Part shown: positions 1,540 through 60,973 of the stretch, in pieces
How the letters are laid out: each line of letters opens with the position of its first letter
Position numbering within the stretch: the stretch's first letter is position 1
NCBI GenBank assembly: GCA_964413905.1
Contig: CAYPUG010000001.1
Span: forward strand, 6,962 to 70,961
Reading direction: 5' to 3'
DNA from: an uncultured Anaerolineae bacterium
GTDB taxonomy: Bacteria; Chloroflexota; Anaerolineae; JAADDB01
DNA: 64,000 nucleotides
Translations under genes and position numbers: made by a program
Notes under the pieces: model-generated
The model's input: only the letters and a program-made list of their open reading frames with translations
What the model was told of the DNA's origin: nothing
Database searches by the model: none

Positions 1540-1662
1540 CTGATCGACTGACACCTTGGCTTTGAAGGAAGAAGGGAAATTCGTGGGCTTTTCGCGGCCT
1601 TCGGCCGCGAAAAGCCCACTCTTTACGCCGAAGTACATGAAACGCGATATGTCAGTCGATCA
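1540..1662. repeat. MITE-like element copy A. Terminal inverted repeats CTGATCGACTGACA / TGTCAGTCGATCA enclose a purine-rich tract, a 37-nt GC-rich hairpin (1583-1619) and TCTTTACG.
   Basis: Perfect 13-14 bp inverted repeats 95 bp apart. Internal sequence is homologous to copies at 14661-14765, 44877-44989 and 7505-7610. Confidence 0.7.
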
Positions 1663-1802
1663 AGTCTGATAAACGAACCACATCCGTACATGCATCTCGG
1701 CTTAAAGATACCGGAAAAACTATAGCACAAAAATCGGCGAAAGGTAAAATCCTCCAATTTTCAGAAAATGGACAGGCATCTGGTGAACCCACAACACGCG
1801 CA

Positions 1803-6097: not shown

Positions 6098-6172
6098 GCG
6101 AGAATCTCTGATCAATATTTTGGGATGTTCGCCGCCGATGACGACGAACATCCCAAAACCCGACTCTGTCTA

Positions 6173-6704: not shown

Positions 6705-7481
6705 CTATCGTCCCTTCCACTCAGGTTGACGCTTTTCCACAAATGCGGCCATACCCTCTTTCTGATCCTCTGTGCTGAACAGCGCGTAGAAGAGGAGTCG
6801 TTCGTGCTGGAGACCGGCCTGCAATGTGCTTTCCAACGCGTAAAGCACCGCCTCCTTGCCGAAGCGGACGGCCAACGGTGCGCGGGAGGCGATCTTCGCA
6901 GCCAACTTGATGGCCTCATCCAAGTACGTCTCTACGGGGTAAACGTGATTAACCAGGCCGAAGCGTGCGGCTTCCTCCGCGGTGAGCCGGCGATCGTTGA
7001 GGACCATCTCCATGGTCAAATACTTACCGATGGTTCGCGTCAGCCGCTGAGTGCCTCCGGCGCCGGGGATGATGCCCAGGTTGATCTCAGGCTGACCGAA
7101 CACCGCGGTCTCACTGGCAATAATCATATCGCACGCCCAGGCCAACTCCGCTCCGCCGCCCAAGGCAAACCCAGACACCGCGGCAATGACCGGCTTCTTT
7201 GCCAGAGCCACCGCGTCCCAACCGTCCACAAAAGGTTCGGTTTTCATCTGTACGGGCGTCTTGTTCATCATTTCTTTGATGTCCGCGCCCGCGGCAAACG
7301 CCTTATCGTTCCCGGTGAGCACAATAGCCCGCACACTCTCGTCTTCATCCAATGCTTTGAACGCTTGAGCCAACTCCTTGAGAACGCCCAAGTTCAGCGC
7401 GTTGTACTGCTTGGGTCGATTCAGCCGCACCAGTGCGACCCCCTCTACCGGCTTCTCGATAATCAAGTATTCGTACGTCAT
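6705..7481 (-). CDS. Enoyl-CoA hydratase/isomerase (crotonase family)
   Basis: Crotonase fold with oxyanion motifs (GNDKAFAAGADI, GGGAELA). Strong GGAGGTGA Shine-Dalgarno before MTYEYL. Confidence 0.85.
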   Translation of the reverse strand: MTYEYLIIEKPVEGVALVRLNRPKQYNALNLGVLKELAQAFKALDEDESVRAIVLTGNDKAFAAGADIKEMMNKTPVQMKTEPFVDGWDAVALAKKPVIAAVSGFALGGGAELAWACDMIIASETAVFGQPEINLGIIPGAGGTQRLTRTIGKYLTMEMVLNDRRLTAEEAARFGLVNHVYPVETYLDEAIKLAAKIASRAPLAVRFGKEAVLYALESTLQAGLQHERLLFYALFSTEDQKEGMAAFVEKRQPEWKGR

Positions 7482-7504: not shown

Positions 7505-7610
7505 ACCTGATGGACGGACTCATCATGTTCTATGTCCCTCGGCATATTAAGAACAGAATCAATCCTTCTGCTCGGCCAAGAGACATGCCCAGAGTTTGAT
7601 CCATCCATCA
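7505..7610. repeat. MITE-like element copy F (a hairpin-less variant) in the enoyl-CoA hydratase/queA intergenic region
   Basis: Starts with CTGATGGACGGAC. Internal segments align with copy C (CATGT..CCTCGGC, GGCCAAG, CAGAGTTT). Confidence 0.5.
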
Positions 7611-8994: not shown

Positions 8995-11565
8995 CTATCC
9001 TCCGCAATCGGGGGTTATTGTGACCGTCGGGGTCGCCCCCTCCCGAGCAACGATCTTTACCCGCCACGTACACGCACAACTCCCATCCGAACCGGAAATC
9101 CGGGCCCGATACATGCCTTCCAAGCGTACACCTTCCCCCAACAACGCGGAAGGGGGAAGTCCTCGATCCAACCATTGCCATCCCCATCCGGGACTCATAA
9201 CCCAACGAATGGTTTGACCGTACGCCTCTAACAGGGAAGAAGGACGAGTATAGCCCATCGTGCCCCACACCGAAGCGTCTTCCAGGGGAAACGCTTGACC
9301 GCTCCAATGCCATGAACGGGTCTGTTGGCCGCGCTCTGTGTGCCAGGACCAGGTCACCCGTCCTTCCTGCACCACTTTACAGGCAGCCGCATTGCTCCCC
9401 CGTGTCAACGCGGCCACTACGGCCACGTTGGCCCGCACCAACGTATCTTCGGTGAGCACCGCAACGGACGGCCCCAACAATGGAGTGTCCCCCACAGACC
9501 AAGGAAGGGGCAAAGGCGAAGGGCCGGAAGTGAGCACCTGCAGCGAATCGCACCCACACGCGACCTGTTCATTCCAGTGAGAAGTCTCCGTATCGAGCAC
9601 GTACACGGCTTCATCGTACAATCCCGCCGCGTCCCTCACAGTAAGACGCACCACGTACGTACCCGGTGCGTACGTGTGTTGTACGCTTTCCCCCTCTCCC
9701 GTCTGCCCATCCCCAAAATCCCAATGATAGGAGACAATGTCCTCGTCATAATCCATGCTCCCCGAAGCGTTCAACAACACACGACCGTCATCCAGGAACG
9801 AAGCGGTGGCGTACGCGTAGGGAGGATGCTCAAACGTCACCTGGCGGATGACCTGATACAGACGGCCTCGGTGATCCCACATGCGGGCGCGTAGGTGGAC
9901 CTTCTTCAGGGCAGGTACCGGGTTCCACAAAACCTCCCACACCCCATCTTCGACGAGATTCTCCATATCCGAGAGAGTGGCCACAGGTTGCCACCGCCGT
10001 CCGTCCCAATAGGAAAGATCCGCTGCAACCACATCGGTCAGAGACGTCACCACCAACAGAGGGCTTGCCCCGATCACGGGCTTACCCCCTTCCGCACCGG
10101 CCCACGTCAGAGTAATGGTGGGGGTATCCACTCCCTGTTCGGTCGAGAATGCCCCCGAGTGCACGAGCGCCCGGTATCCTAACCAGGGGAAATGAACATC
10201 CGGCGCATACCATCGCAAGGGCAGACGCAACGCCGCAATAGGCCCTTCTCCTTGCGGGTGTGCACTCACAAGCAAGGAGTCCGCCGCGGTCAGTGTGGCC
10301 GTCAACGGCACCTGCAGGGTTACGGTGAGCGTCACGCCCTGTCCCACATCCAGGTTATCCACATGGGTTGGGGACACGTGCACAGAAATCCCTTCAGGCG
10401 CGGTGGCCTGCACCTCGACAGATGCGGGATCAATGCCCCAATTCGTGAGGGAAAGGGTCCAACGGGTGGATGCCCCGCGGCGCAAAGGTTCCCAATAACC
10501 CACACCCAACCGGAGGATAGGGAGTGGACGTGGAGCACCCACATCGAGAGGAGCGTCCACCACATCGGCTAATGTCACACCCTCTGCCAACTCCACCCGG
10601 TCTGGGTTCACCCGCATGTGGGCCATACCGCCGAAAACGATCAACGGAGGGAAGCGAAACCGGATGCCCTGTAAACTCAACGTGGAAACATCTGAACCCA
10701 CAACCCACAGGCCTCGGGATCGGGCCATGACCGCCGCGGTATCGATACCGCTTAAATCCACCACAGAATGCCCATCCACAGCGAAGAAAACACCGTTGCC
10801 CCCTACGCGAGTCCTGTGGCCGGACGCGAGCAAACCCGACGAGGAGCGCAAGATGGTGTCCCCGTACGTCGCCCCCTCCCCCCCTAACACCCGGGAATCG
10901 GACATGATGATGCTATGCCCCCACAGGACCACATCCCCGCCATGTCCCTGGGTGGATGTCCCCCCGCGCACCTCGCCTACTTGCCACACCGCGGCCTTCG
11001 CTGTCAAGAAAACCGCGCCGCCGGGGAAGCCCCGAGTGCCCGCGCCACCGCGTACTGTCCCCCAATTTTCCACCATCCCCTGTAGGGATTCCAAACGCAC
11101 GGAGCCACCGGGCGAACCGGTGCGTCCGCCGTCACCGCCCAAAACAAGCCCTTTATTCACTACACCGGCGGTCACCGACCGAAGTCGCACCCCACCGCCT
11201 GCGTGCGTGTCATCGCCGTACCCGCCTAACACAGCCCCCTCGATGGTAATCGCCTTCTCCGCGAGAATGTCCACATCACAGCCGGAGGCCGCCTGCAAAA
11301 TACCGCGCGAAGCCACAAACAGCGAATCCACGGAGGGCGTCTGCCCTTCCAAGGTAACCACTACATTATCGGGAATAAGCACCGTACTATCAGGCCCCGG
11401 GATGGTCTCTCCCGGCACGGGATCGCCCGTTCTGCCCCACGTGGTGGGATCGTCCCACCGGCCGGAATGGAGGGCTTGAAAGGTTGAGACCGCCGCGACA
11501 GGTTGTGAAGGTGCCAGAACACTTAACAACAGGCCGATCGCGATGACAGCCCAAACATGTCTCAT
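8995..11565 (-). CDS. Secreted multidomain protein with an N-terminal signal peptide, Gly-rich parallel beta-helix-like repeats and a PKD domain
   Basis: Signal peptide MRHVWAVIAIGLLLSVLAPSQPVAA. PKD signature WDFGDGQTGEGESVQHTYAPGTYVVRLTVRD. GGxGxxG repeats. Confidence 0.7.
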   Translation of the reverse strand: MRHVWAVIAIGLLLSVLAPSQPVAAVSTFQALHSGRWDDPTTWGRTGDPVPGETIPGPDSTVLIPDNVVVTLEGQTPSVDSLFVASRGILQAASGCDVDILAEKAITIEGAVLGGYGDDTHAGGGVRLRSVTAGVVNKGLVLGGDGGRTGSPGGSVRLESLQGMVENWGTVRGGAGTRGFPGGAVFLTAKAAVWQVGEVRGGTSTQGHGGDVVLWGHSIIMSDSRVLGGEGATYGDTILRSSSGLLASGHRTRVGGNGVFFAVDGHSVVDLSGIDTAAVMARSRGLWVVGSDVSTLSLQGIRFRFPPLIVFGGMAHMRVNPDRVELAEGVTLADVVDAPLDVGAPRPLPILRLGVGYWEPLRRGASTRWTLSLTNWGIDPASVEVQATAPEGISVHVSPTHVDNLDVGQGVTLTVTLQVPLTATLTAADSLLVSAHPQGEGPIAALRLPLRWYAPDVHFPWLGYRALVHSGAFSTEQGVDTPTITLTWAGAEGGKPVIGASPLLVVTSLTDVVAADLSYWDGRRWQPVATLSDMENLVEDGVWEVLWNPVPALKKVHLRARMWDHRGRLYQVIRQVTFEHPPYAYATASFLDDGRVLLNASGSMDYDEDIVSYHWDFGDGQTGEGESVQHTYAPGTYVVRLTVRDAAGLYDEAVYVLDTETSHWNEQVACGCDSLQVLTSGPSPLPLPWSVGDTPLLGPSVAVLTEDTLVRANVAVVAALTRGSNAAACKVVQEGRVTWSWHTERGQQTRSWHWSGQAFPLEDASVWGTMGYTRPSSLLEAYGQTIRWVMSPGWGWQWLDRGLPPSALLGEGVRLEGMYRARISGSDGSCACTWRVKIVAREGATPTVTITPDCGG

Positions 11566-13638: not shown

Positions 13639-13657
13639 GGTAGGCGACGGCAGTGCC
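13639..13657 (+). repeat. 19-nt repeat GGTAGGCGACGGCAGTGCC, downstream of the translin-like gene
   Basis: Near-identical copy at 14499-14517 (GGTAGGCGACGGCATTGCC). Confidence 0.6.
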
Positions 13658-13680
13658 TTCACCTATCCACCACACCTCGC

Positions 13681-14498: not shown

Positions 14499-14544
14499 GG
14501 GTAGGCGACGGCATTGCCGTGGCCTACCCGGCCGTCGCCTACCC
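14499..14544. repeat. Repeat cluster: one forward GGTAGGCGACGGCATTGCC followed by two tandem inverted copies (GCCGTGGCCTACCC, GCCGTCGCCTACCC)
   Basis: 13-14 bp perfect inverted repeats, read directly from the sequence, 190-240 bp upstream of the translin-like gene start. Confidence 0.6.
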
Positions 14545-14660
14545 GAGGGTCTTACGATGGCTCAACCGCCGATACAGCGCCTTCGCGTGTTAGAGCATTG
14601 AAAAACTCCGTCGTGCCCCCACGCGCTTGCCTCTCTTCATGCATCTTTGTACAATTTAGT

Positions 14661-14765
14661 CTGATTGACGGACATATCGCGTTTCATGTACCTCGGCGTA
14701 AAGAAGGAGTAGCCTTCCCCTTTCTAGGCCAAGGTGCATTCACAGAGTTTTTGTCAGTCAATCAG
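14661..14765. repeat. MITE-like element copy C (without the central hairpin), lying in the serS upstream region and flanked by the 9-bp direct repeat CAATTTAGT
   Basis: TIRs CTGATTGACGGACA / TGTCAGTCAATCAG. About 45 nt of near-identity to the reverse complement of copy A (GACATATCGCGTTTCATGTACYTCGGCGTAAAGA). Direct repeats at 14652-14660 and 14766-14774. Confidence 0.7.
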
Positions 14766-14867
14766 CAATTTAGTTTACAATAGAAATAGCTCATGAAGGC
14801 ACAGAAGCCAATCCCCCCATCCACGACCGCAACACCGAGGGGAATTTTACCGCGGGGAGGTACACGT

Positions 14868-22016: not shown

Positions 22017-22077
22017 AGTGCGTTTAGATGGGTCCGTCAATCAGCACTTCGTTTCGAATGGAGACGGAGGTGGATCT

Positions 22078-22968: not shown

Positions 22969-24230
22969 ACGACGCGTGGATTGCCGCGGGTATCTTTCTC
23001 CTGACGTACGCGATGATCGTGAGCGAACGCGTGCCGCGCACCACCGCCGCCTTGGCCGGTGGCATGTTGATGATCCTCCTGGGCATTCTCCCCCAGGAAG
23101 AAGCGTTTCACGCGGTGGATCTGAACGTACTTTTCCTCCTAACGGGCATGATGGTCATTGCCCACCTGATGGGCGAAACCGGCTTTTTTCAGTGGTTGGC
23201 TGTCCACACGGTCCGCCTGAGCCAAGGCCGCCCCGTCCAGGTCATGGTGTTCATTGCGCTCATTACAGCCTTTGCGTCCGCATTCCTGGACAACGTAACG
23301 GTGGTGGTCCTCATTGCACCGGTAACATTGTACGTCGCCAGCACCTTAGGAGTCAGCCCTGTTCCTTTCCTCATCACGGAGGTGATGGCCTCCAACATCG
23401 GTGGGGCAACGACGCTCATCGGAGACCCACCGAATATTCTTATTGCCAGCCGAGCGAACATTGACTTTCTCCAGTTCCTCCTGAACATGGCACCGCCGGC
23501 TCTCCTCTCCCTGCTCGCTTATGTGGGCATCATGGTCGTCCAATTCCGGCACGCGCTTACCGTACCCGCGGAACGTCGACAGATGCTCATGCGCCTTAAG
23601 ACAGAGGGACTCATCACGAACAGAGCTCTGTTGGTGCAAACTCTCACCGTGCTGGCTGTGGTCATTGTGGGATTTCTCCTTCACGGCGTGCTCCACCTGG
23701 AGCCGGCCACCATTGCCCTTAGCGGCGCGACCTTGCTCCTGCTGTGGACAAAACGGGATCCGCACGCCATCTTTCAACATGTGGAATGGGCTACGTTGAT
23801 GTTCTTTGTAGGACTCTTCATCGCAGTGGAGGGGTTGGTCGCCACGGGGGTGATTGAACGTGTTGCCCACGCGCTGGCGCGCTTAACCTCCAGGAATGTA
23901 CGTATCACCACGTTCTTCATTCTGTGGTTCTCCGCGCTGGCCTCGGGAATCGTGGATAATATCCCCTATACCGCAACCATGCTCCCCATCGTGGAAACAC
24001 TGGGCCGGGTCATGCCTATCCGACCGTTGTGGTGGGCCCTCGCTCTGGGCGCGGATTTGGGGGGAAACTTGACCCTGGTGGGCGCTTCGGCCAATGTGGT
24101 AGTCGCCAGCATTGCTGAACGCAGTGGACACAAGTTAACGTTCGGCGAGTTTTTCCGCTACGGTCTGACAACCGTTACGGTCTCTTTGATTATCTCGTCC
24201 ATCTGGCTGTGGGTCATGTACCTCTCCTGA
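22965..24230 (+). CDS. ArsB/NhaD (CitMHS-type) family permease
   Basis: About 12 TM helices with a duplicated ion-transporter architecture. Confidence 0.7.
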   Translation: MNDAWIAAGIFLLTYAMIVSERVPRTTAALAGGMLMILLGILPQEEAFHAVDLNVLFLLTGMMVIAHLMGETGFFQWLAVHTVRLSQGRPVQVMVFIALITAFASAFLDNVTVVVLIAPVTLYVASTLGVSPVPFLITEVMASNIGGATTLIGDPPNILIASRANIDFLQFLLNMAPPALLSLLAYVGIMVVQFRHALTVPAERRQMLMRLKTEGLITNRALLVQTLTVLAVVIVGFLLHGVLHLEPATIALSGATLLLLWTKRDPHAIFQHVEWATLMFFVGLFIAVEGLVATGVIERVAHALARLTSRNVRITTFFILWFSALASGIVDNIPYTATMLPIVETLGRVMPIRPLWWALALGADLGGNLTLVGASANVVVASIAERSGHKLTFGEFFRYGLTTVTVSLIISSIWLWVMYLS

Positions 24231-24263
24231 TAGAACGATAAAACTCTGTGTACATACCGTGGC

Positions 24264-24896
24264 TTAAAGAGAAAGAAACGGATTCAAGCGACGTTCGGTA
24301 CCCACGGTGGTAAACTCGCCGTGACCGGGCAGGAGTTGATAATCATCGGGCAGCGCGAGGATAACGCGACGGATGCTCTCCATAAGGGTCGAGAAATCAC
24401 CTCCGGGAATATCCGTCCGGCCAATGCTGCCCGCGAAAATAACATCGCCCACAAAGGCCCGACGGTGGATGTGGTCTATGAGCGTGACCGATCCCGGGGA
24501 ATGACCCGGCGTGTGTGCGATCTCCAACGCGACCCCACACACGGGAAAAGGCATCCCCGGCTCCAGGTGAGCGTCCACCTTGGGCATGGGGCCGGGATCA
24601 AACCCCAACCATGAACGGGTAATCTCCCGCTGAACGGCCAATACCGGCTCATCGTCCGGATGCAGGTAAAAGGGAACGGGCCGCTCTTGCCGTAACGCGT
24701 CCACCGCTAACACATGGTCAAAATGGGCATGAGTGGCAATAATCGCTTGCAACCGCCACCCGTGCCGCCGTAAAACCGCTTGAATGGCCGTTGGATGGCC
24801 ACCGGGATCAATGACCACGGCCTCGTTCGTGTCCTCACAGCCGAGAACAAAACAATTAACTTGCAAGGGACCCACCACCACGTGTTCCAAAACCAT
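24264..24896 (-). CDS. MBL-fold metallo-hydrolase (glyoxalase II-like)
   Basis: HAHFDH zinc-binding motif. Confidence 0.8.
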   Translation of the reverse strand: MVLEHVVVGPLQVNCFVLGCEDTNEAVVIDPGGHPTAIQAVLRRHGWRLQAIIATHAHFDHVLAVDALRQERPVPFYLHPDDEPVLAVQREITRSWLGFDPGPMPKVDAHLEPGMPFPVCGVALEIAHTPGHSPGSVTLIDHIHRRAFVGDVIFAGSIGRTDIPGGDFSTLMESIRRVILALPDDYQLLPGHGEFTTVGTERRLNPFLSL

Positions 24897-29236: not shown

Positions 29237-29986
29237 CTATGGTCTCACCCGTACCCATATCCAAAGGATAATACGTTTCAGCACTTCGTATCCGATCCAC
29301 ACCAAATACGCCCACAACGCGTATCGGGCACCGCGCAAAGCAGCCTTCCGAATCCGCTGACTGTTGAAAATCTGCCCAAATTGGCTGAAAATACCCCGCC
29401 CGGTTCCCTGATGTTGACCGGCCACTACCGTCGCCGTAGGTGTAGGCGAAGGGATAGGGGTAGGCGTAGGTATTTCGGGCAGGACCACCACGGCCGGTGT
29501 CGGGGTGGGTGCGGGGGTCGGAGTAAAGCGCGGTGTCGGGGTAACCGTCGGCGTGGGTGTGGGCGTAGGCCTGGTGTTTGCCACGTCCACACGCACAATG
29601 GGCGATTCGATGTAGTTGCCGTCGATTTTGACCACGCGGAGTTTCAGCGCGTAAGGACCATCCGGCAGGGGGCGCGTGTCCCACAAGCCTAACAGACCGT
29701 TGGGTTGTTGGTTGTAATGCGCTTCACCGATGAAAATCCACCCCTGATCCCCAGAAGGCGGTGGCCAGGGCGCATAATACAACTCGTACCTTTGGAATTG
29801 GGGATGAACGGCGACGCCGGAAATGCGCACTTCTCCGCGCACCACGTCACCGTTTTTGGGTATGGTAATCAACGCCTCTGCGCCTTGAGCGTGCACACCC
29901 GTACCGATAATTCCCCACGCTATGAACAAAGATACGAGCAAGATGGCCGCGAGCGACATCCATCCTCGTCGTGAATACATGTACAT
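29237..29986 (-). CDS. Secreted protein: signal peptide, a beta-sandwich domain, a Pro/Thr-rich linker and a C-terminal hydrophobic anchor
   Basis: Signal peptide LAAILLVSLFIAWGIIGTGVHA. (PT)n linker. GGAGAGG Shine-Dalgarno. Confidence 0.6.
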   Translation of the reverse strand: MYMYSRRGWMSLAAILLVSLFIAWGIIGTGVHAQGAEALITIPKNGDVVRGEVRISGVAVHPQFQRYELYYAPWPPPSGDQGWIFIGEAHYNQQPNGLLGLWDTRPLPDGPYALKLRVVKIDGNYIESPIVRVDVANTRPTPTPTPTVTPTPRFTPTPAPTPTPAVVVLPEIPTPTPIPSPTPTATVVAGQHQGTGRGIFSQFGQIFNSQRIRKAALRGARYALWAYLVWIGYEVLKRIILWIWVRVRP

Positions 29987-30017: not shown

Positions 30018-31148
30018 TCATACTTCTTCATCAAAGAGCACTTCTGCTTTGATATCTTCTTCCTCTTCCAAGTTACCGCCCAACGCGCCGGCTACAACGC
30101 CAACAGATGCCATAAAGGCTGAATATCGTTCCAAGGACAGGGCGTGTGCGGTCGGCAAACCGGCCCACGCCGCGAACACATCTTTGGGTAAGACATAAGA
30201 AATCGTCAAGGAGACAACGAAGATAATAGCCCACAAAAATGTCATGCCCAAGAGTAAGGTGCCAAAAAGCACGATTTGTGTTCGGGCAATCTGCTCCCGT
30301 AAATGAACTTCACGCGTGATTTGGCCCATGTTCTGACCGTAGTACATGAGAAAAGTTGCCAAAAGTGTCGCACCTACCGGACCGGCCAGGATGAGGGAGA
30401 AAGGCAAATGTGCACCGATCTCCCACGCTTCCGCGGTCATCAACAAGAACACCGTGGACACCGCAGCCGCGGCCGTCAGGCGTCCCAAGTAAACGGGCAT
30501 CTCCCACGGCGCGTATCGCCAGATATCCAACAAAATTCCTCCCGGGTCGGTGAAGAAAGTGCGCACGTAAAAGGCCAACCGACCCCAATGAGGCCGCTGT
30601 TCCTCCAAGCGTGCGTCGGCGATAAGGTGCAGATGATGGTTAATGGCCTCGATGACCTCTTCTGGAAACGGTTCAATCTGCAACAGCGTTGGATCCTCTA
30701 TCGGCTGGGAGGGGCCGGTGAGGGTATGCTTTACGTCCCACAGGTGAGATAACATATGGAGCACTAAGCCCCCCAGACGTTCAGGCAACACATCCTTCGC
30801 CCCTAAGCGCGCGGTGGAAACCACCGCGACTTCCAGGGCGGAGGAGGGAATCCCCATCGTAGAGATCCGGTGCCGAGGGTTCAATTCGTTGGGAACCACC
30901 ACAATCGCGTAATCCCAGCGACGGAGGATCTTCTCCTCTGCCCCGATTTCCAACAAAGGCAGGGGATCCAATGCCCCCACGGGAACGTATACCCGCCGCT
31001 CTACAAAGGGCATCTCCCATTCAAAATCGGGGAACTGCTCCTGAAGAAGGGTCAACACCTCATCACGGGCTAAAGTATACGCGGCCAACATTTCCTCGTT
31101 ACGAAGGTCCGCAGCCAGCACCCAGCCCACGCTGACCACCGAACTCAT
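30018..31148 (-). CDS. Hypothetical membrane protein with an N-terminal soluble domain and four C-terminal TM helices
   Basis: ORF and hydropathy only. The 4-bp overlap with the hisA stop suggests coupling. Confidence 0.5.
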
Positions 31149-31903
31149 CGCAACACCTCGCGAACACGAGATAACGCAGCGGAAAGGTCCACGCGGCCGG
31201 CGTACAGCGCCTGACCGATGATGACTCCGGCCACGCCCCGATGAGCCACCGACAACAAGGCGTCAATATCGGCCAGACCGGCGACCCCACCCGAGGCAAT
31301 AACACGCAAACCGGTCTGTTCGGCCAGACGGGCCACGGCCTCCGCGTCCACCCCCGAGAGCATACCATCCCGTTGGATGTCCGTGTACACAGCCCAACGC
31401 ACCCCGGCTTCACGCATGGCCTGTCCCAACGCGACAACAGAGACCTCACTCACCTGGGCCCACCCGTGCGTAGCCACCCGCCCCTCACGCGCGTCTAGCC
31501 CCACGGCAATGCGCTCCGAGCCGAAGCGACGCAGGGCTTCCCGTACTATGTCAGGGCGGGTGACTGCAACCGTGCCCAACACCACCCGCGCGACTCCCAA
31601 ATCCAACACCGACCGAATATCCTCCAACGTCCGCAAACCTCCACCAAATTGTATCGGCACAGGAACCTCATTACAGATCGCAGCAAGAGCCTGAAGATTG
31701 GGAGATAACACCTCGGGGTCGAGAGAATCCCCCAACGCGCCGTCCAAGTTGACCACGTGCAACCACGTGGCGCCCTGGTCTACCCATCGCCGCGCGATCG
31801 CTACAGGATCGTCGCCGTACACCGTCTCCGCGTTCGGATCTCCTTGGCGCAACCGAACACACTTACCACGCCGCAGATCGATGGCCGGAAATATGTCAAA
31901 CAT
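31145..31903 (-). CDS. hisA: 1-(5-phosphoribosyl)-5-[(5-phosphoribosylamino)methylideneamino]imidazole-4-carboxamide isomerase (HisA/PriA-like)
   Basis: [18 protein letters not shown] ... GGGLRT ... GVARVVLGT. Confidence 0.8.
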
Positions 31904-32345
31904 GATGTTGTTACCCATGCCCTGGCCTCATCTTTTTTCCTGATGGACGGACAAAACGTCACGGATGCTATCGAAGCGGCGAGAGGTCGTCGCACTCCAA
32001 AAACTTTCCCAGGTACTCCTATGAAACAAGTACAATCTCGAGAATTTCCTAAAATCCCTTCCCAAAATCGGCGAAAGAAGTGTTCACTATTTTACCGCAC
32101 ATAAAGGACAGGGTGAAATGCACCGCGTCCTGTTCCGGGGCTTTCCAACAGTCTGATACGTGAAGATATTGTATCGGCCATTGAGTCGTTGCATGTCCTT
32201 TTTAGAAGGCTCTTGATAAGCGAAGGCAATGCCTCCACCTCCCCCCTGTGTGTTGAAAAAAGACTGGATTGTGTCCTTGCCGGGCTTGAAGTTCTTATTG
32301 AGTCGTGTTACACTGTGTTGTGGTAAGGAGGAGAAAAATCCGAGC

Positions 32346-40174: not shown

Positions 40175-40303
40175 GATAGAAGGCCGAAGGGACACCCCGG
40201 TCGACCGACACGACGCCACGGATGCATGTTGGCTTAAAACGACATGCATCGGTCCATCAGAAGAACTTTTTACGTTGAGGTCCATGTGAAGGAGGCAACA
40301 GGT

Positions 40304-44433: not shown

Positions 44434-44823
44434 ATGTACGACCTCTACGCAGAAGAAATCCTAGACCATTACAAATTTCCCCGCAACAAGGGGAAAATGG
44501 ATAACCCCGACCTGGTGTACCACGATGAAAACCCCGTATGCGGGGACGAAATCACCATCATGCTCAAAGTGGAAGACGGTCGGGTCGTCGATGTGAAGTG
44601 GGAAGGCCGGGGCTGCACCATCAGTCAGGCATCCGCTTCTATGCTCTCGGAAGAGGTAAAAGGGAAAACCTTGGAAGAACTACGCCACTGGGGCAAGGAA
44701 GAGGTGCTGGACCTGTTGGGGATTCCCCTCGGCCCTGTACGTTTAAAATGTGCGCTTTTGCCGCTCAAAGCCCTGAAGGCCGCGGCTTGGGGTATCACAT
44801 CCTGGCCGGATGAGGAGGAATGA
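44434..44823 (+). CDS. sufU: SufU/IscU-like sulfur-transfer scaffold protein
   Basis: NPVCGDEITI ... GRGCTISQAS ... CALLP motifs. Confidence 0.85.
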   Translation: MYDLYAEEILDHYKFPRNKGKMDNPDLVYHDENPVCGDEITIMLKVEDGRVVDVKWEGRGCTISQASASMLSEEVKGKTLEELRHWGKEEVLDLLGIPLGPVRLKCALLPLKALKAAAWGITSWPDEEE

Positions 44824-44827
44824 GTTT

Positions 44828-44862
44828 CGTGGGATGTTCGCTAAAGGCGGAAACATCCCACG
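44828..44862 (+). terminator. GC-rich hairpin (copy B1 of the GTGGG...CCCAC hairpin family) 5 nt after the sufU stop, followed by a U/C-rich tract. Probable intrinsic terminator.
   Basis: CGTGGGATGTTCGC-taaag-GCGGAAACATCCCACG, then ACCTTTCTCCTCCTCTT. Confidence 0.5.
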
Positions 44863-44876
44863 ACCTTTCTCCTCCT

Positions 44877-44989
44877 CTTGATATATCGCCCAGGCTTAAA
44901 AGGAGAAGAGGGTGTGATTTTCGCCGCCTTCGGCGGTGAAAATCACACAAATCTCTACTCTTTCTTTACGTGATATATCAATCCATCAG
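44877..44989. repeat. MITE-like element copy B, with the central hairpin at 44912-44948
   Basis: The left arm CCTCCTCTTGATATATCG ... AAAAGGAGAAGAGGG and the right arm TCTTTACGTGATATATCAATCCATCAG are collinear with copy A. The hairpin GTGTGATTTTCGCCGCC-TTC-GGCGGTGAAAATCACAC shows compensatory changes relative to copy A. Confidence 0.65.
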
Positions 44990-53299: not shown

Positions 53300-53385
53300 C
53301 GTTCCCTCCTCACCGCCGTTCACACATCTGCATGCCCACGGATAGGCGAAGAACGTGCCTTCGTCTACCCGTTCCAACCTCCATT

Positions 53386-54825
53386 TTACTTTTTACATCG
53401 ATCCTCGATAATGCCCTTCGTCAAATAGTTTTTCACCATGACATAGGGAGCCCGCACACGCCATTCCCCTAAAGGACTGGGCTCAACAATGGACCACCAC
53501 CACTGTTCGTCATCAGGCGTCCACTCTAACTTGGGCATATAGATGAGCGTCATCACCCCGATCCAGGGACGCCAATGATGTTTGGCCCACTCGAACGCGC
53601 GCACAATGTAACACCCTTGGACAAAGAAATCAATACCTGCCCCTGCGCCGTGCCAGTAATAGGGCGAATCGGGCCGGTTGTCGGTCGTCCAACCGAACTC
53701 CAAAATAACCACCCTTTTGTCCTCATCCCCGTTCTCCACCATGATACGACGGATGTCCTCTACATGTCGGAAAGTGAAGAAGCGTTCGCCTCCGTACTTG
53801 GCCTTGTTCGCCGCGGCTTCTTCAGGACTGACTTCGGGGGGCGCCGCGAACCCCGCGCCGTGAACGCCCAGCATGTCAAAGTAGCCGTCACTGTTGCCCC
53901 CCATGGCCCGATACATCTCCCTGTAGAATTTTTCATCGGGCATGGCAATCTCATTATCCGTGCCTGTGGGAGCCATCCCTGCACTGATGACAATGGCGTT
54001 CGGATCGGCACTCTTGATGGCCGTGTACGCGGCCTTCAACATTTGCACGTACTCCGCGGGGTTCGGACGCTTGCCGCCCCACTCTCGCGCCAAGTTAGGT
54101 TCGTTCCATATCTGATAGGCGTGAATGCGGCCTCGATACCGGGACGCCATGGCGTGCAAAAAGTCGGCAAAATCGCGGATGTTCTGGGGCGGTGGGCCGG
54201 CCCACTTTACCCCCCCTTGAGGATCGGTACTCACCCGCGCGATCAACTTCAATCCCTTACTGTTGACCTGCTCAACCACTCGATCCGCTTGGGTCCAATT
54301 GAAATGCCCTTTTCCGGCCCCCTCAATATCCTCCCACGCGAACGTCTGTTTAACCCACCGGAAGCCCGCTTCCTTGATCTTGTTCAAATCCCGATCCGCG
54401 ACTTCCGGCCGCCACCACAAGAAGGCCTGGATGCCGTAATCGGGTGAGGACATGATGTCCATATAATCCGACGCGTGAACCGGTTCCGGAGTGGGCGTCG
54501 GCGGAACAGGTGTCGGCGTAAACGTCGGAGGTACCGGGGTGGCCGTCGGAGGGGGCAACGTCGGTGTGGCCGGTTCCCTTGTAGCCATAGGCTGAACGCC
54601 GGATTCCGTGGACTGGGCCGTAGGCTTGGAAGGGACCGGTGTGGCGGTAGCGATAATCAGCGTAGGCCGTACGGGCAACGGGGTTGGCGTGGACGTTGAC
54701 ATCCCCACAGGAGTGGGGGTCTTCGTGGGCGTAGGTGTGAAGGTAGGGGTGGGTGCAGCACACCCGGAGATCATCACCGCAAGGACGAGGACAATGGCAA
54801 GCCACAGAGCGTTCATACGACGCAT
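53386..54825 (-). CDS. Lipoprotein glycoside hydrolase (clan GH-A TIM barrel) with a Pro/Thr-rich linker
   Basis: Lipobox ISGC. Putative acid/base motif IWNEPN. GAAGGAGG Shine-Dalgarno. Confidence 0.65.
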
Positions 54826-54934: not shown

Positions 54935-57900
54935 TTAGCAGGATCCGTTCTCCCGACACGCCTTTAGCGCGTTAAACGCGGGGAGCGGACTCCAATCCGG
55001 GGCCACAATACCCCATTGCGCTTGCTCGGATCCGGGGGCTACAACGCGGAAATTCAAATTCCAGAGGAAGGCCACTCCGACCCACCCCCACTGTTTCATC
55101 ATCTGATAGGCCCGCACGGTGAACTGGGCCTGCTCTTCCAGCGTGTTATCGGCCGCGTACTCGTAACCGGGTACCGGGTTAGGGTTCGATGCCCAACCAA
55201 ACTCCGTCGGCCAGATACGCTTCCCTGCATCGCCATACCGCACCATGATGGTCCGATACCCCTCCATCGTCTGCCGGAAGGACCACGAGTGATGTGGGTT
55301 CTCGCACGGGCCGCGGAACGTCTGCACGTTAGGATGGCACCCGGTGGCATCAGGCGGCACGTTGTAACCGCTGGGATGTGCACCGATGGCGTCGGAGTAC
55401 TGCTTGAGCCCATGTTGGTACATGCCTTCCAGGTATGCGAAGTCGTCCATGGCCAACGGCGGCGGCGCACCGGTCGGTGTGAGCGCACCGCTGATAACGA
55501 TCATACTGGGACACGCCCGCTTGATAGAGGTATACGCGGCCTTAAGCAACTGCATGTATCGGGCCGGATCAATGGGCTCATGGCCCCACTCATACCACAA
55601 GTTCTGCTCATTCCACACTTCGATGGCCTTCAAGCTACGACCACAATATCGCTGAGCTACCGCCCCCACGAAATCCGCGTAATCCTGCGGGTTCTGGGGC
55701 GGACCGTTCACGCTGAAGTCCGTGTTCCCCGGTCGGGCCCAGCGCGGGGCTTTCACAATACTGAACATGACCTTGATGCCCTTCTGATCGCCCGTGTTGA
55801 CGATCATGTCCATCATGCCCCAGTCAATTTGACCCTTATTTGGCTCCATGCGGAACCACTCAATTTGCTGTTTAACCCAATGGAAGTGCATGAGATTGAT
55901 CATGTCCATGACCTTCGCGGTCATGCCCGGGCTGTCCATATGCGCCTGGATGCCGTAATCAAAGAAGCCCGGCGCCCGAGCCGCGACCGGGCGAGGCCGG
56001 GGGGTGGGTTCCGGCGGGATGTTTTTGGCCACCTGAACGTTCTCCACCGGGCCGATTAACTTCACCAGCTTGCCGAACACCCAGCCTAACTTACCTCCGC
56101 CCAGGTCGATCTGCCACCACGTTCCCTGCTTGTTCTTACCCACAATCTTGAACTCTTGTCCCTGAGAGACCTGAGTCACCACCCCGTAATTGGTGCTCGG
56201 CCCCTGGCGCACGTTCATCTTCGTCGCCTGGATACGGGCAATCGCGACCATGGGTGTCGGGGTCATCGTCGGGGTAGGCGTCGCGCTGGGTACCGGGGTC
56301 GGCGTGGGTGTGGCAGTCGCTACGGCCATGTACATCTCACTGGGTTCGCCGATGACATACCCCCCTTGGCGCAATACCGTCTGCAAGCGATAGTTCCCCT
56401 TCTCAGGAGCCTGTACGTGAATCACTTGCGATCCGACCGGGATCTCTCCTTGCTGAACAATGTTGCCCTGGCTGTCCACAATGACCCAAGACACACTATA
56501 ATCGGACGGAGCAACGGAGACCTGCGCTTCACTCTGATACGCGCGTAACACATCCCAAATCGCGGGATCCGCGTCGCCGGAAAGCAGGTGCTGGCTGGTT
56601 ACCCCCGCGATGTTAAACTTGTCGAGGATTTCCAGTTTATGGGCTAAACTGGCCGCATTCTCGATGTACACCGTGCGCTGGTTGCCTTGCTCATCCAGAT
56701 ACGTGTACCAGTATTGGAACAATTCTTCGTCAAACTGAAGCGGGCTGACCGGACGCTGTGTGGTCACGGATACCTGAACATCCTGACCGGGTTGCACGAC
56801 CTGCTCTTTCGCCCCTTGGATTTGGGCCACAATCGGCGCCAAAGCCTCGCTGTACGACCGGAGGAAGTAGTAAGCCCCTGCCACCTCCACACTGCGAGCA
56901 GGCAGGACGACTTCGATCTTATGTCGGTCGATCTCACCGACAGCCCATTGGAGCATTTGCTCGAACGCGCCGCCGTTTCGATAGGCTTCGGGATCCACCG
57001 GCGCGGGAATGCGGACCACGTCCACGGCTCGGCCAATTTTACGCCAATCGTACCCTCCGGTCAGCCAGACGCCCTCGGCAATCTGGCGGGGGAGCCCCAC
57101 GCGCACACTGAGAATCTTCCCTTCCGCGTGAAGTCGGTCGGCCAGCGCCTTGATGAATTCGGTGAACTGGGCCCGCATAAGGGGATCCACATCGCGGTAA
57201 TCGATGTCCACCCCCGCGTAGCCGTTCTTCACCACCAACTCTACAATCGAGTCAATATTGTTCTTTCCCCACTGTTCATTCGCCAGAATATTCCACGTTA
57301 GATCGGTACGCACCACGCCTTCTTTATAATTACGAATGGTGGGCACAATCTGATAGGAAACCCCACTCCCTGGAGCGGGTACGGCCACCTCGCCGTCTAA
57401 GAACCCCTCATCCCCCACATAAATCCCCACAGGATGCACCTCAGCCACTGCAGTGGCACCGGCATCAGGCAGGACCATACCCTCGGGCAGATCGACATCG
57501 GCCACTTTGGGGCCGGGCGTGGTCTGCATAACCATGAAATTGGAGGGAATCCAATCCAATACCGCCTCGATGGTATCATCCGCGGCGACACGATGGTGAG
57601 GCAACCACATCCAGGTATGGGATTCCACATCCCACGTGTACAGGTCAAGCGTCTCATAGGGCATAGCATCGTTCGGGGTAGGAATGCTAATGTACACGGC
57701 TTTGGGCAGGCTGCCCTTCAGATCAAGCATGTAAAAGGGGCTCTTCGGGATCAGACCTTGAGCCTCTACAGCCTTCACGGCCTCGCTCAACGAATCGGGC
57801 ACATGCCCGGCCACGAACTCTTGCATGGGGATGGATGTCAACTTAGCCTTTAAAGGCCCGGTCAACGATGCATCGGGAAACGTCACTTGGGTACCGTCCG

Positions 57901-58944: not shown

Positions 58945-60153
58945 TCACCGGGTCACCCCATAGGATTTCAGGATCTTCTCTCGCTTTTCCGCGCCCTCTT
59001 CGATAACCTGCAACAGCCTCTGGGCCTCACCCAGCTGATGCGAACCGATGTGTTCCTGTAACCGCCAAATCGCATCCAACAACTCACCGTACATGGCCAA
59101 TTGCTTCTGCACGGCTTTGAGCACTTCATCCAACGCATCAATGCGCCGGTTTTGCTCCTGCCACTTATAGTCCCATTCCAGTACTTGTTTCTTCCAACGC
59201 TTCTCCTGTTCACTTTCAAACTCACGCATGGCCCGACGAAGGGCTTCTTCGGCCACGCGTTGCGCTTCCCGGATTTCGTGAACATCCTTGTGCAGGCTCT
59301 CCTTCCACCGTTCAATATCCGCAACCGCCCGAACCGCTTTATCGTACTGGACCTCAAAGCGCTCGAACCGCTTCAGAGCGTCTGCCACCTGGGCTTTCAT
59401 TTCCTCAAAGACCTTTTGCCACTCATGCACCTTCTTCTCCCGATCCACCTCGGCTTGACGCACCTCTTCCAGAAACGCGGACTCCTCACGTCGAATGCTC
59501 TCTACCACCTCACGCACATCTCTAACAATGTTATCCTGACGCTGCAATTTCTCCTCAAGCAGCGGTAACTTTCCTGCAAGAGCTTCTAAGCGCCGAAACA
59601 ATTCCACCGTTTCGCCCTGCAATTGTCCGATACGCTTGTGGTCCTGAGAGCGTTGTTCGCTTAACAAGGTGACCGTGCGCAACGCTTCCTCCGAGCGCCG
59701 GTCGATCTCCACCACCTGCTCCCGCAAGCGCATAACCTGCTCACCTAGGCGCCGATCTTCGGCCTTAAAGCCGTCCAGGATTTCCTCCAATGCGGCAATT
59801 CGTTCCAGTTCCTTGCGCAGTTCCGCGATCTCGCGGCCCCACTTTTCCCGTTCCGCAGCCCGCAGCCGTTCCTGATCCCGCTCTCGCGCCAACCGTTCTT
59901 CCTCGCGACGTTCAATCGTGGCTCGCACGTCCTTGCGCAAGTTCTCCAGTGCCTCCTGCAAGGAAGCATACTCGGCCAGTTGGGAACGGGCAGCCGCAAG
60001 TTCACTTTCCAACTGTTGAATGCGTCGGGCCTGATCCTCAATGATGCCGGCCTGGCTGGTCAGGCGCTGTTCCAGTTTACGCATCTCCTGATCGGTCCGG
60101 CGACGTTGTTGATCCAGCCAAGTGACCATTTGCTCCAATTGCGTCAGGTCCAT
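58945..60153 (-). CDS. Highly charged coiled-coil protein (402 aa, Glu/Arg/Lys/Leu/Gln-rich heptads)
   Basis: AAAGGAGGGGG Shine-Dalgarno before MDLTQLEQ. Coiled-coil character throughout. Confidence 0.6.
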   Translation of the reverse strand: MDLTQLEQMVTWLDQQRRRTDQEMRKLEQRLTSQAGIIEDQARRIQQLESELAAARSQLAEYASLQEALENLRKDVRATIERREEERLARERDQERLRAAEREKWGREIAELRKELERIAALEEILDGFKAEDRRLGEQVMRLREQVVEIDRRSEEALRTVTLLSEQRSQDHKRIGQLQGETVELFRRLEALAGKLPLLEEKLQRQDNIVRDVREVVESIRREESAFLEEVRQAEVDREKKVHEWQKVFEEMKAQVADALKRFERFEVQYDKAVRAVADIERWKESLHKDVHEIREAQRVAEEALRRAMREFESEQEKRWKKQVLEWDYKWQEQNRRIDALDEVLKAVQKQLAMYGELLDAIWRLQEHIGSHQLGEAQRLLQVIEEGAEKREKILKSYGVTR

Positions 60154-60499
60154 AAAAACTGCCCCCTCCTTTGAGTGGTCAACCTGATCGACCGATAGCC
60201 CTCCGCATGTGCACTTTGGCTTAAAAGAGCGATGTCGCAATGCCTTCGTCTACCCGTTGAAGTTCGGCCGGTCAATCAGGCATGTTCTTTTTGGTCTATA
60301 CGTGGGAGATATTTTACCATAAGGCGCAAAGAATCATAATCGAACCGGCCCGCACGCCGGGTTTTCCATATGCACAGGTTTGATGGACCGATAACACATC
60401 ATCCGAGATGGAGGAAATGCGTGAGATTTTTACCACTCTCGGTGGCGTAAATCCCGCTCGTATATCTACTAATGAACACGTATTCGCACGGGGGCAAAC

Positions 60500-60973
60500 A
60501 TGAGTGAGGATGTACACATTGAGGGCGTAGAGATTAAACCTCTGATTACCCATCGGGATGCTCGTGGATTCTTCCGGGAAATTATTCGTGTCACCGACGA
60601 TTTCTTCGGCGAAGGATTTGGCCAATGGAGCCACAGCCGCATGTTCGCGGGAGTGGCTAAAGCCTGGCACATTCATTGGAAACAGGTGGATTGGTGGTAC
60701 GTGCCCATCGGCAACGTCAAAGCCGTACTCTGTGACTTGCGCCCGGAATCCCCTACGTACAAGATCATCCAAGAAGTGTACATGGGGGACAATTACGATC
60801 CCATTGTGCTGAAGATCCCGCCCGGAGTCGCCCACGGGGTAAAAGTCCTCAGCGGCGAAGCGCACCTCTTCTACATCACGTCCCGTGTGTACGATCCCGA
60901 AGATGAAGGACGCATTCCTCATGACGATCCGGACATAGGGTACGACTGGACGGCTCTACCACCCATCAAATGA
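60500..60973 (+). CDS. dTDP-4-dehydrorhamnose 3,5-epimerase-like cupin (RmlC family)
   Basis: RmlC-like motifs DARGFFRE and WHIHWKQ. Confidence 0.65.
   Translation: MSEDVHIEGVEIKPLITHRDARGFFREIIRVTDDFFGEGFGQWSHSRMFAGVAKAWHIHWKQVDWWYVPIGNVKAVLCDLRPESPTYKIIQEVYMGDNYDPIVLKIPPGVAHGVKVLSGEAHLFYITSRVYDPEDEGRIPHDDPDIGYDWTALPPIK

Follow-up and report, generated by a model that had tools for sequence, protein, structure and literature searches.

The short intergenic repeats found in the DNA of one uncultured Chloroflexota species are very probably copies of a non-autonomous DNA transposon (MITE). The whole stretch of DNA that was analyzed, 64 kb in length, is called the window below. A preliminary description of this stretch had proposed that its intergenic DNA holds a MITE-like family whose inverted ends read CTGATYGAC...GTCRATCAG, and we found this proposal to be supported by target-site duplications, by the nesting of one copy within another element, by copies elsewhere in the genome, and by the absence of the family from the sampled DNA of sister species. 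The family is new; the kind of element, a bacterial MITE, is well known. Literature searches returned no publication on a MITE family of Chloroflexota.

Homologous copies in the window

The family HMM was derived from ten full copies, of which two lie in the window and eight on other contigs of the species; an HMM of the element arm was used alongside it for solo ends. With up to two mismatches allowed, the terminal motif CTGATYGACNGACA was observed 12 times in the window, compared to 2.7 ± 1.6 times in shuffled sequence, and none of 100 shuffles reached 12. The four copies listed originally (A, B, C and F) are all homologous according to the family HMM, with E values from 5e-7 to 8.5e-31, and their coordinates had been right to within a few bases. 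The similarity reported between copy C and the reverse complement of copy A was likewise confirmed, over 43 nt at 93% identity and in inverted orientation. This is the only long pairwise similarity inside the window, and copies B and F share little beyond their ends; the support that the window by itself gives to B and F is thus weak.

Copy C (14661-14765, plus strand) is a complete short form of 105 nt with both 14-nt ends (nhmmer E value of 8.5e-31), located between an 80-amino-acid ORF and serS. It is flanked by a 9-bp target-site duplication, CAATTTAGT, which was read directly on the left (14652-14660) and on the right (14766-14774). Identity to copy C is 94 to 96% for short and long copies at other places in the genome, and three further assemblies of the species contain copy C unchanged. 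Similarly to copy C, copy A (1540-1663, minus strand) begins and ends with CTGATYGACNGACA and its inverse. It is a 124-nt variant (nhmmer E value of 4e-30 over 1540-1662) that has the central GC hairpin (1583-1619) and has lost internal parts of both arms; its neighbours are an mscS-like and a malK-like gene, each encoded on the minus strand. Only two bases past copy A, we observed an older partial arm on the plus strand (CTGATAAACGAACC...CTCGGCTTAAAGA, 1666-1715), to which the arm HMM gave a weak match (1686-1708, E value of 0.03), so that the two form a back-to-back layout (1663-1715).

Copies F and B are diverged. Copy F (7507-7610, plus strand), a short form of 104 nt, was detected with an E value of 5e-7 (nhmmer, model positions 1 to 148), and both of its arms match the arm HMM (3e-9 and 1e-7). 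This copy, which we call old, is 52 to 68% identical to the other copies; its start lies 25 nt upstream of the start codon of an enoyl-CoA hydratase gene and its end 12 nt after the stop codon of queA. Copy B (44872-44989, minus strand; nhmmer E value of 8e-12 over 44887-44989) is located between sufU and the FeS_assembly_P gene, has shortened arms and a truncated left end, and bears a hairpin with compensatory changes.

Six further features had been missed in the preliminary description: those at 24227-24315, 40197-40260, 22031-22044 and 1666-1715 and the hairpins at 6117-6158 and 44826-44866. A right-half fragment on the minus strand (24227-24315) matched model positions 63 to 149 with an E value of 3.9e-6 (nhmmer) and the arm HMM with an E value of 2e-3. 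Element G (40197-40260, plus strand), a 64-nt variant with the ends CCGGTCGACCGACA ... CATCGGTCCATCAG, is placed between sufC and sufB and gave weak HMM matches (E values of 0.04 to 0.5). The solo terminal motif CTGATTGACGGACC (22031-22044, minus strand), upstream of a CBS-domain gene, has one mismatch and an arm-HMM E value of 0.07, and may be a chance match.

Two stretches, 31943-32110 and 60268-60400, had been proposed as decayed copies, and this was correct only in part. At the first, about 20 to 35 nt of one arm are recognisable from position 31940 and the remainder is unrelated. This solo arm remnant (31940-31975, plus strand; motif with one mismatch, borderline arm-HMM E value of 0.02) starts 21 nt upstream of the start codon of the His_biosynth gene, and by eye about 15 of 19 nt are identical to the left arm of element G. 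At the second, the genuine pieces are 60184-60279 and 60382-60470, which do not fill the proposed interval. The former, element E (plus strand, 96 nt), carries both family ends around a different interior; its left arm (60184-60232) was detected with E values of 1.3e-4 and 1.3e-3, its right end, CTGATTGACCGGCC, has two mismatches to the motif, and it lies upstream of a minus-strand gene (58945-60153) of unknown function. The latter is a diverged fragment on the minus strand, upstream of the RmlC-like gene (nhmmer E value of 1.1e-3).

The census of the 64 kb thus comprises four clear copies, the short variants E and G, in each of which two ends are present, and about five fragments. It had been stated that this load is far denser than is typical of REP or MITE sequences. 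This does not hold, since the spacing of ~16 kb per clear copy, or of ~6 kb when fragments are counted, matches that of Correia elements in Neisseria.

Other repeats were noticed in the same DNA. A second short, hairpin-capable family, GGTAGGCGACGGCAnTGCC...CCTACC(C), occurs mostly in or beside intergenic DNA (13639-13668, 14500-14529, 32215-32244, 53341-53370 and 60243-60262 in the window; ~2716-2749 in contig L194); one partial copy lies inside element E, and the one in L194 follows a solo MITE end. Repeats of the GGTGTCGGGGT type, with an 18-nt period, are found within long ORFs (29496-29560, 54509-54756 and 56253-56317), namely, the gene of an N-terminally extended peptidyl-tRNA hydrolase and two genes that are glycosyl-hydrolase-like. 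These probably encode Pro/Thr-rich linkers and are unrelated to the MITE. The window contains no tRNA genes.

Anatomy of the element

The element is bounded by 14-nt terminal inverted repeats, CTGATTGACTGACA ... TGTCAGTCAATCAG, which are nearly invariant among 12 aligned copies; two positions vary and tend to agree between both ends of a copy. The two arms, of ~48 nt or more, can be aligned with each other and are imperfectly complementary. Two main sizes were observed. The long form (153 to 154 nt), CTGATTGACTGACATATCGCGTTTCATGTACCTCGGCGTAAAGAAGGAGTAGAAATTCGTGGGATTTTCGCCGCC-TTCG-GGCGGCGAAAATCCCACGAATTTCCCTTCCTCTTTCTAGGCCAAGGTGCATTCGCAGAGTTTTGTCAGTCAATCAG, contains a perfect, GC-rich central hairpin of 20 to 24 bp. 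In the common short form (104 to 105 nt), the central ~50 nt with the hairpin are missing. Odd deletion forms of 124 nt (copy A) and 78 nt also exist. One short copy, on contig L123, retains GAAATTC at the deletion point, which suggests that the short form arose from the long form through loss of the palindrome. The long element folds over its entire length (-92 kcal/mol, z score of -14.6), and copy C also folds as an end-to-end hairpin (-39 kcal/mol, z score of -5.8).

With a length of 78 to 154 nt, full copies are too short for a transposase and have no coding capacity. Pairwise identity among copies ranges from 52 to 96%, with F and B at the low end (52%) against the rest; insertions of older and younger age thus exist side by side. 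Even the best pair, at 96%, is not identical.

Evidence of movement

Perfect 9-bp direct repeats were found exactly at the junctions of 6 of the 10 full copies, no two of which share the same 9-mer: CAATTTAGT (copy C), TCCCGTTGC, GCCACACAA, CATACTTAT, ATATCCCGT and GGTCGAAGT. The probability of one such 9-bp match by chance is ~4e-6. The other four, copy A among them, have no recognisable duplication. In addition, contig L188 carries one long copy nested inside another element. When the inner copy and one GGTCGAAGT are removed, a complete 109-nt short-form element is restored, which matches the full model with an E value of 1e-17 (nhmmer). Every assembly of the species in which the window is covered has the same copies, and no strain-level insertion polymorphism was observed among them. 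An empty serS site, if one is ever seen, would read TACAATTTAGTTTACAATAG, with the flanks joined and a single 9-mer.

From these features we infer that a transposase encoded elsewhere would bind the terminal repeats and insert the element at staggered cuts 9 bp apart, the repair of which would duplicate the 9-bp target. Copies would survive almost only between genes, where diverged copies, solo arms and fragments would be left as they decay.

Copies elsewhere in the genome of the species

Confinement of the motif to the window had been named as an observation that would speak against the family. Further copies were found on other contigs of the same species. Collections were scanned with the end pattern TGATNGAYNGAYATATCRCG, derived from the better-conserved end. 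In metagenomes, at least eight contigs carry full elements, all from JGI Ga0256833, and these are the only real members among the matches listed. One of these contigs, L166, matches 4.3 kb of the contig JBPMQQ010000183 (L208) at 99.9% identity; L208 belongs to the metagenome-assembled genome (MAG) GCA_054022975.1, which also holds near-identical versions of the serS and suf loci of the window. The Ga0256833 contigs are thus other parts of the genome of the same species. L208 itself contains about six copies or fragments in 12.8 kb.

Outside the species, the end-pattern scans gave chance hits only, among the matches listed in the case of metagenomes. With one genome per GTDB species, a set in which the source species is evidently not included, we obtained 73 isolated hits in unrelated taxa, with no family sequence past the pattern. 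Viral contigs gave four chance hits with the same pattern, and a BLAST search of plasmid and phage collections with the full element gave no match. According to homologues of SufB and RtcB, the species belongs to Chloroflexota; its nearest named relatives by SufB (78 to 80% identity) are Caldilineales, Litorilinea and Ardenticatena. The short-read Logan contig L003 (SRR8439172_426462) has its first position inside copy C, which fits a repeat family that breaks short-read assemblies of this species.

Absence from sister species

Loci of sister species were reached through homologues of SufB (97, 95 and 89% identity) and RtcB (93 and 89%), for a total of ~109 kb. These species have ~76 to 84% nucleotide identity to the source species, and the DNA compared is orthologous or neighbouring, including the suf and rtcB loci. 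L200, L202 and L203 to L205 (76 kb) contained no terminal motif at up to one mismatch and no arm-HMM hit. The family HMM found no arm or end in L200 to L205, its sole hit being a central hairpin in L200 (E value of 2e-4), and L209 and L210 (33 kb) gave no family or arm hit at an E value below 0.1. The spacers differ in length: the sufC-sufB spacer measures 43 nt in L200 versus 129 nt in the window, where it holds element G, and the spacer downstream of sufU measures 93 nt versus 208 nt with copy B. The spacers of the sister species have diverged beyond alignment, and for sufC-sufB, sufU-downstream and moaA-rtcB the comparison therefore consists of length differences and motif absence rather than of an exact empty site. 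The absence could in principle reflect loss.

The same spacers in sister species carry other simple repeats (L203 ~7200-7340, L202 ~9905-10000 and L209 8690-8870), such as runs of the TACGCATTACGAATTACGC type and groups of TAACGAGTAA in which direct and inverted repeats both occur.

Abundance in one species, together with absence from the sampled DNA of relatives at ~80% nucleotide identity, makes the family a clean strain or species marker. It is relevant to the annotation and binning of these Chloroflexota genomes, and it offers a modest example of a recent MITE burst in a phylum that has received little study; what is known of the MITE mechanism is left unchanged by it.

Gene context of the copies

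All copies in the window lie between genes or at gene edges, and the gene contexts named at the outset were correct (serS for copy C, the His_biosynth gene at 31145-31918 and the RmlC-like gene at 60500-60973). Copies occupy leaders or spacers of housekeeping genes, namely serS, the suf operon and a histidine-biosynthesis gene; elements G and B are both inside the suf cluster. The fragment at 24227-24315 is placed between convergent genes: the TGA stop codon (24228-24230) of a CitMHS transporter gene falls within its CTGATAG end, and it covers the last ~17 codons of an MBL-fold gene on the minus strand (24264-24896).

A consensus scan identified a promoter-like site, TTGCCT-17-TACAAT (14627-14655, plus strand), just upstream of copy C and outside the element. 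If this site is used, copy C would be transcribed within the serS leader. More generally, copies within transcription units, such as those in the serS leader and the suf operon spacers, would put a long RNA hairpin into the transcript. In the stretch upstream of serS (14775-14867), neither a T-box nor another Rfam leader was detected; what the leader contains is copy C.

Such positions raise the question of a conserved cis-regulatory sequence or structured RNA (an operator, leader or terminator cassette) that is immobile and selected near gene starts, with CTGATNGACNGACA as the motif that a regulator would have to bind. Indeed, many element ends lie 20 to 45 nt upstream of start codons, the hairpin is highly paired with frequent both-side changes (see below), and related solo hairpins occur at terminator-like sites, one of them in a sister species. 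However, short intergenic spacers alone suffice to explain ends close to start codons. Moreover, the neighbouring genes are functionally unrelated, the flanking 9-bp repeats differ at every copy, one copy is nested in another and the orthologous spacers of sister species lack the element. Promoter or terminator consensus sequences, which the copies might supply according to the preliminary description, were not found inside them either: simple consensus scans of A, B and C detected no sigma-70-like promoter and no stem-plus-T-run terminator. We consider an immobile regulatory sequence highly improbable. A terminal motif acting as a regulatory site at a fixed distance from the start codon was rejected, since the variable duplications, the nesting and the unrelated neighbours speak against it.

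The central hairpin

Seven hairpins were compared, six within elements and one solo hairpin from the sister species contig L200. In this alignment, 92% of hairpin cells are paired and both-side changes affect 10 of 20 pairs. Neither a shuffle nor a slid register reached the observed pairing, the observed both-side changes (in pairs or in cells) or the covariation score. The loop occurs in both orientations, TTCG and GAAG. The stem has been kept intact either by selection or by palindrome-specific repair.

Solo GC-rich hairpins of the GGGATGTTCGCC...GGCGAACATCCC type were found at two sites in the window and one in L200 (19293-19335), all at terminator-like positions. The first (44826-44866) lies just after sufU and matches the hairpin part of the family HMM (44802-44878, E value of 7.5e-5); the second (6117-6158) lies between convergent genes (family HMM, 6117-6170, E value of 6e-4) and is 91% identical over 35 nt to the L166 hairpin; the one in L200 lies between two genes. 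Since a solo hairpin exists in a sister species free of the MITE, the hairpin may predate the MITE or be independent of it. It is conceivable, if rather improbable, that a host hairpin cassette of terminator-like or REP-like kind was captured by the MITE, or else that the family was moved by a type of transposase undescribed in Chloroflexota. If capture took place, the long form would distribute a working bidirectional hairpin (terminator or RNA-stability element) among operons, and the short form would result wherever this hairpin is precisely lost.

No Rfam family reached its gathering score in the window. When a full copy was searched permissively, only generic long-hairpin models were returned, at 18 to 39 bits versus thresholds of 72 to 120.

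Source of the transposase

Pfam scans detected no transposase domain in any annotated gene of the window or of the related loci, and the 10 largest ORFs scanned in L166 and L194 had none. Nor did the window or the related loci yield an autonomous insertion sequence whose ends match those of the family. Members of the IS4 family (IS10/IS50 type) generate 9-bp target duplications and have ends that start with 5'-CTG, the IS10 end reading CTGATGAATCC... and the IS50 end CTGACTCTT...; duplications of 8 to 9 bp are also produced by IS1, by the IS903 group of IS5 and by IS256. An IS4/IS10-like source, suggested by the 9-bp duplication and the CTG ends, is therefore only a lead: the family shares the 9-bp duplication with IS4 elements, but its transposase gene was not found in the sampled DNA, and no IS10-like target consensus is visible in its six duplications.

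The copies might instead be fossils, that is, former MITEs that lost their parent insertion sequence and persist as immobile, inert intergenic debris. In favor of this reading, the sampled DNA of the species yielded no transposase, the best copy-to-copy identity is 96% with none identical, and the assemblies compared show no insertion polymorphism. The sampling, however, covers only ~100 kb of the genome, and six perfect 9-bp duplications together with the clean nesting argue for fairly recent events. We regard a fossil family as unlikely, though with a real chance of being right, and favor a MITE family that may still be mobilized in trans.

Comparison with known systems

Spread by a RAYT (IS200/IS605-like) enzyme, as for a REP/REPIN-type palindromic repeat, rather than by a cut-and-paste DDE enzyme, is extremely improbable for this family. 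REP sequences are not known to duplicate their target upon insertion. A published account describes REP elements as palindromes of 20 to 40 bp, mostly tagged with GTAG or CGTC at one end (PMC3733652). In both systems, palindromic repeats are abundant between genes and are found singly as well as in inverted doublets; indeed, the ~48-nt arm of our family is present both in inverted pairs and as solo arms, and the elements are strongly hairpin forming. In contrast, the unit of the present family is 104 to 154 nt, starts with CTGAT and is flanked by 9-bp duplications. A REPIN identity was dropped, since the defining features are lacking and no RAYT gene is present among the scanned genes.

MITEAba12 of Acinetobacter and other Moraxellaceae is a non-coding element of 113 bp; its inverted ends are imperfect and 16 bp long, it is flanked by 9-bp duplications, and it can fuse with the ends of neighbouring genes (PMC6382973). 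The fragment at 24227-24315 resembles such a gene-end fusion. MITEAba12 is 78% AT, has few copies per genome and has a parent, ISAba12, with matching ends, and its movement was seen experimentally (PMC6382973). In contrast, the family described here is not AT rich, has many copies and a central GC hairpin, and no parent was found for it.

In its architecture, the family is close to the Correia element (CREE, also called nemis) of Neisseria, although membership in that family was rejected, since the ends, the 9-bp duplication and the Chloroflexota host differ and the resemblance is one of architecture only. Neisseria genomes are roughly 2.2 Mb in size, and CREE duplicates a TA dinucleotide, compared to 9 bp here. 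The ends of CREE are a different 26-bp repeat with no evident sequence relation to ours. For CREE, promoters, IHF binding and RNase III effects have been demonstrated. CREE commonly measures 153 to 157 or 104 to 108 bp, often lies 5' of genes and is present in about 120 to 250 copies per genome (PMC2649163). Both families are intergenic, have inverted ends and two sizes that differ by an internal deletion of ~50 bp, can form a long hairpin if transcribed, and occur at a similar density.
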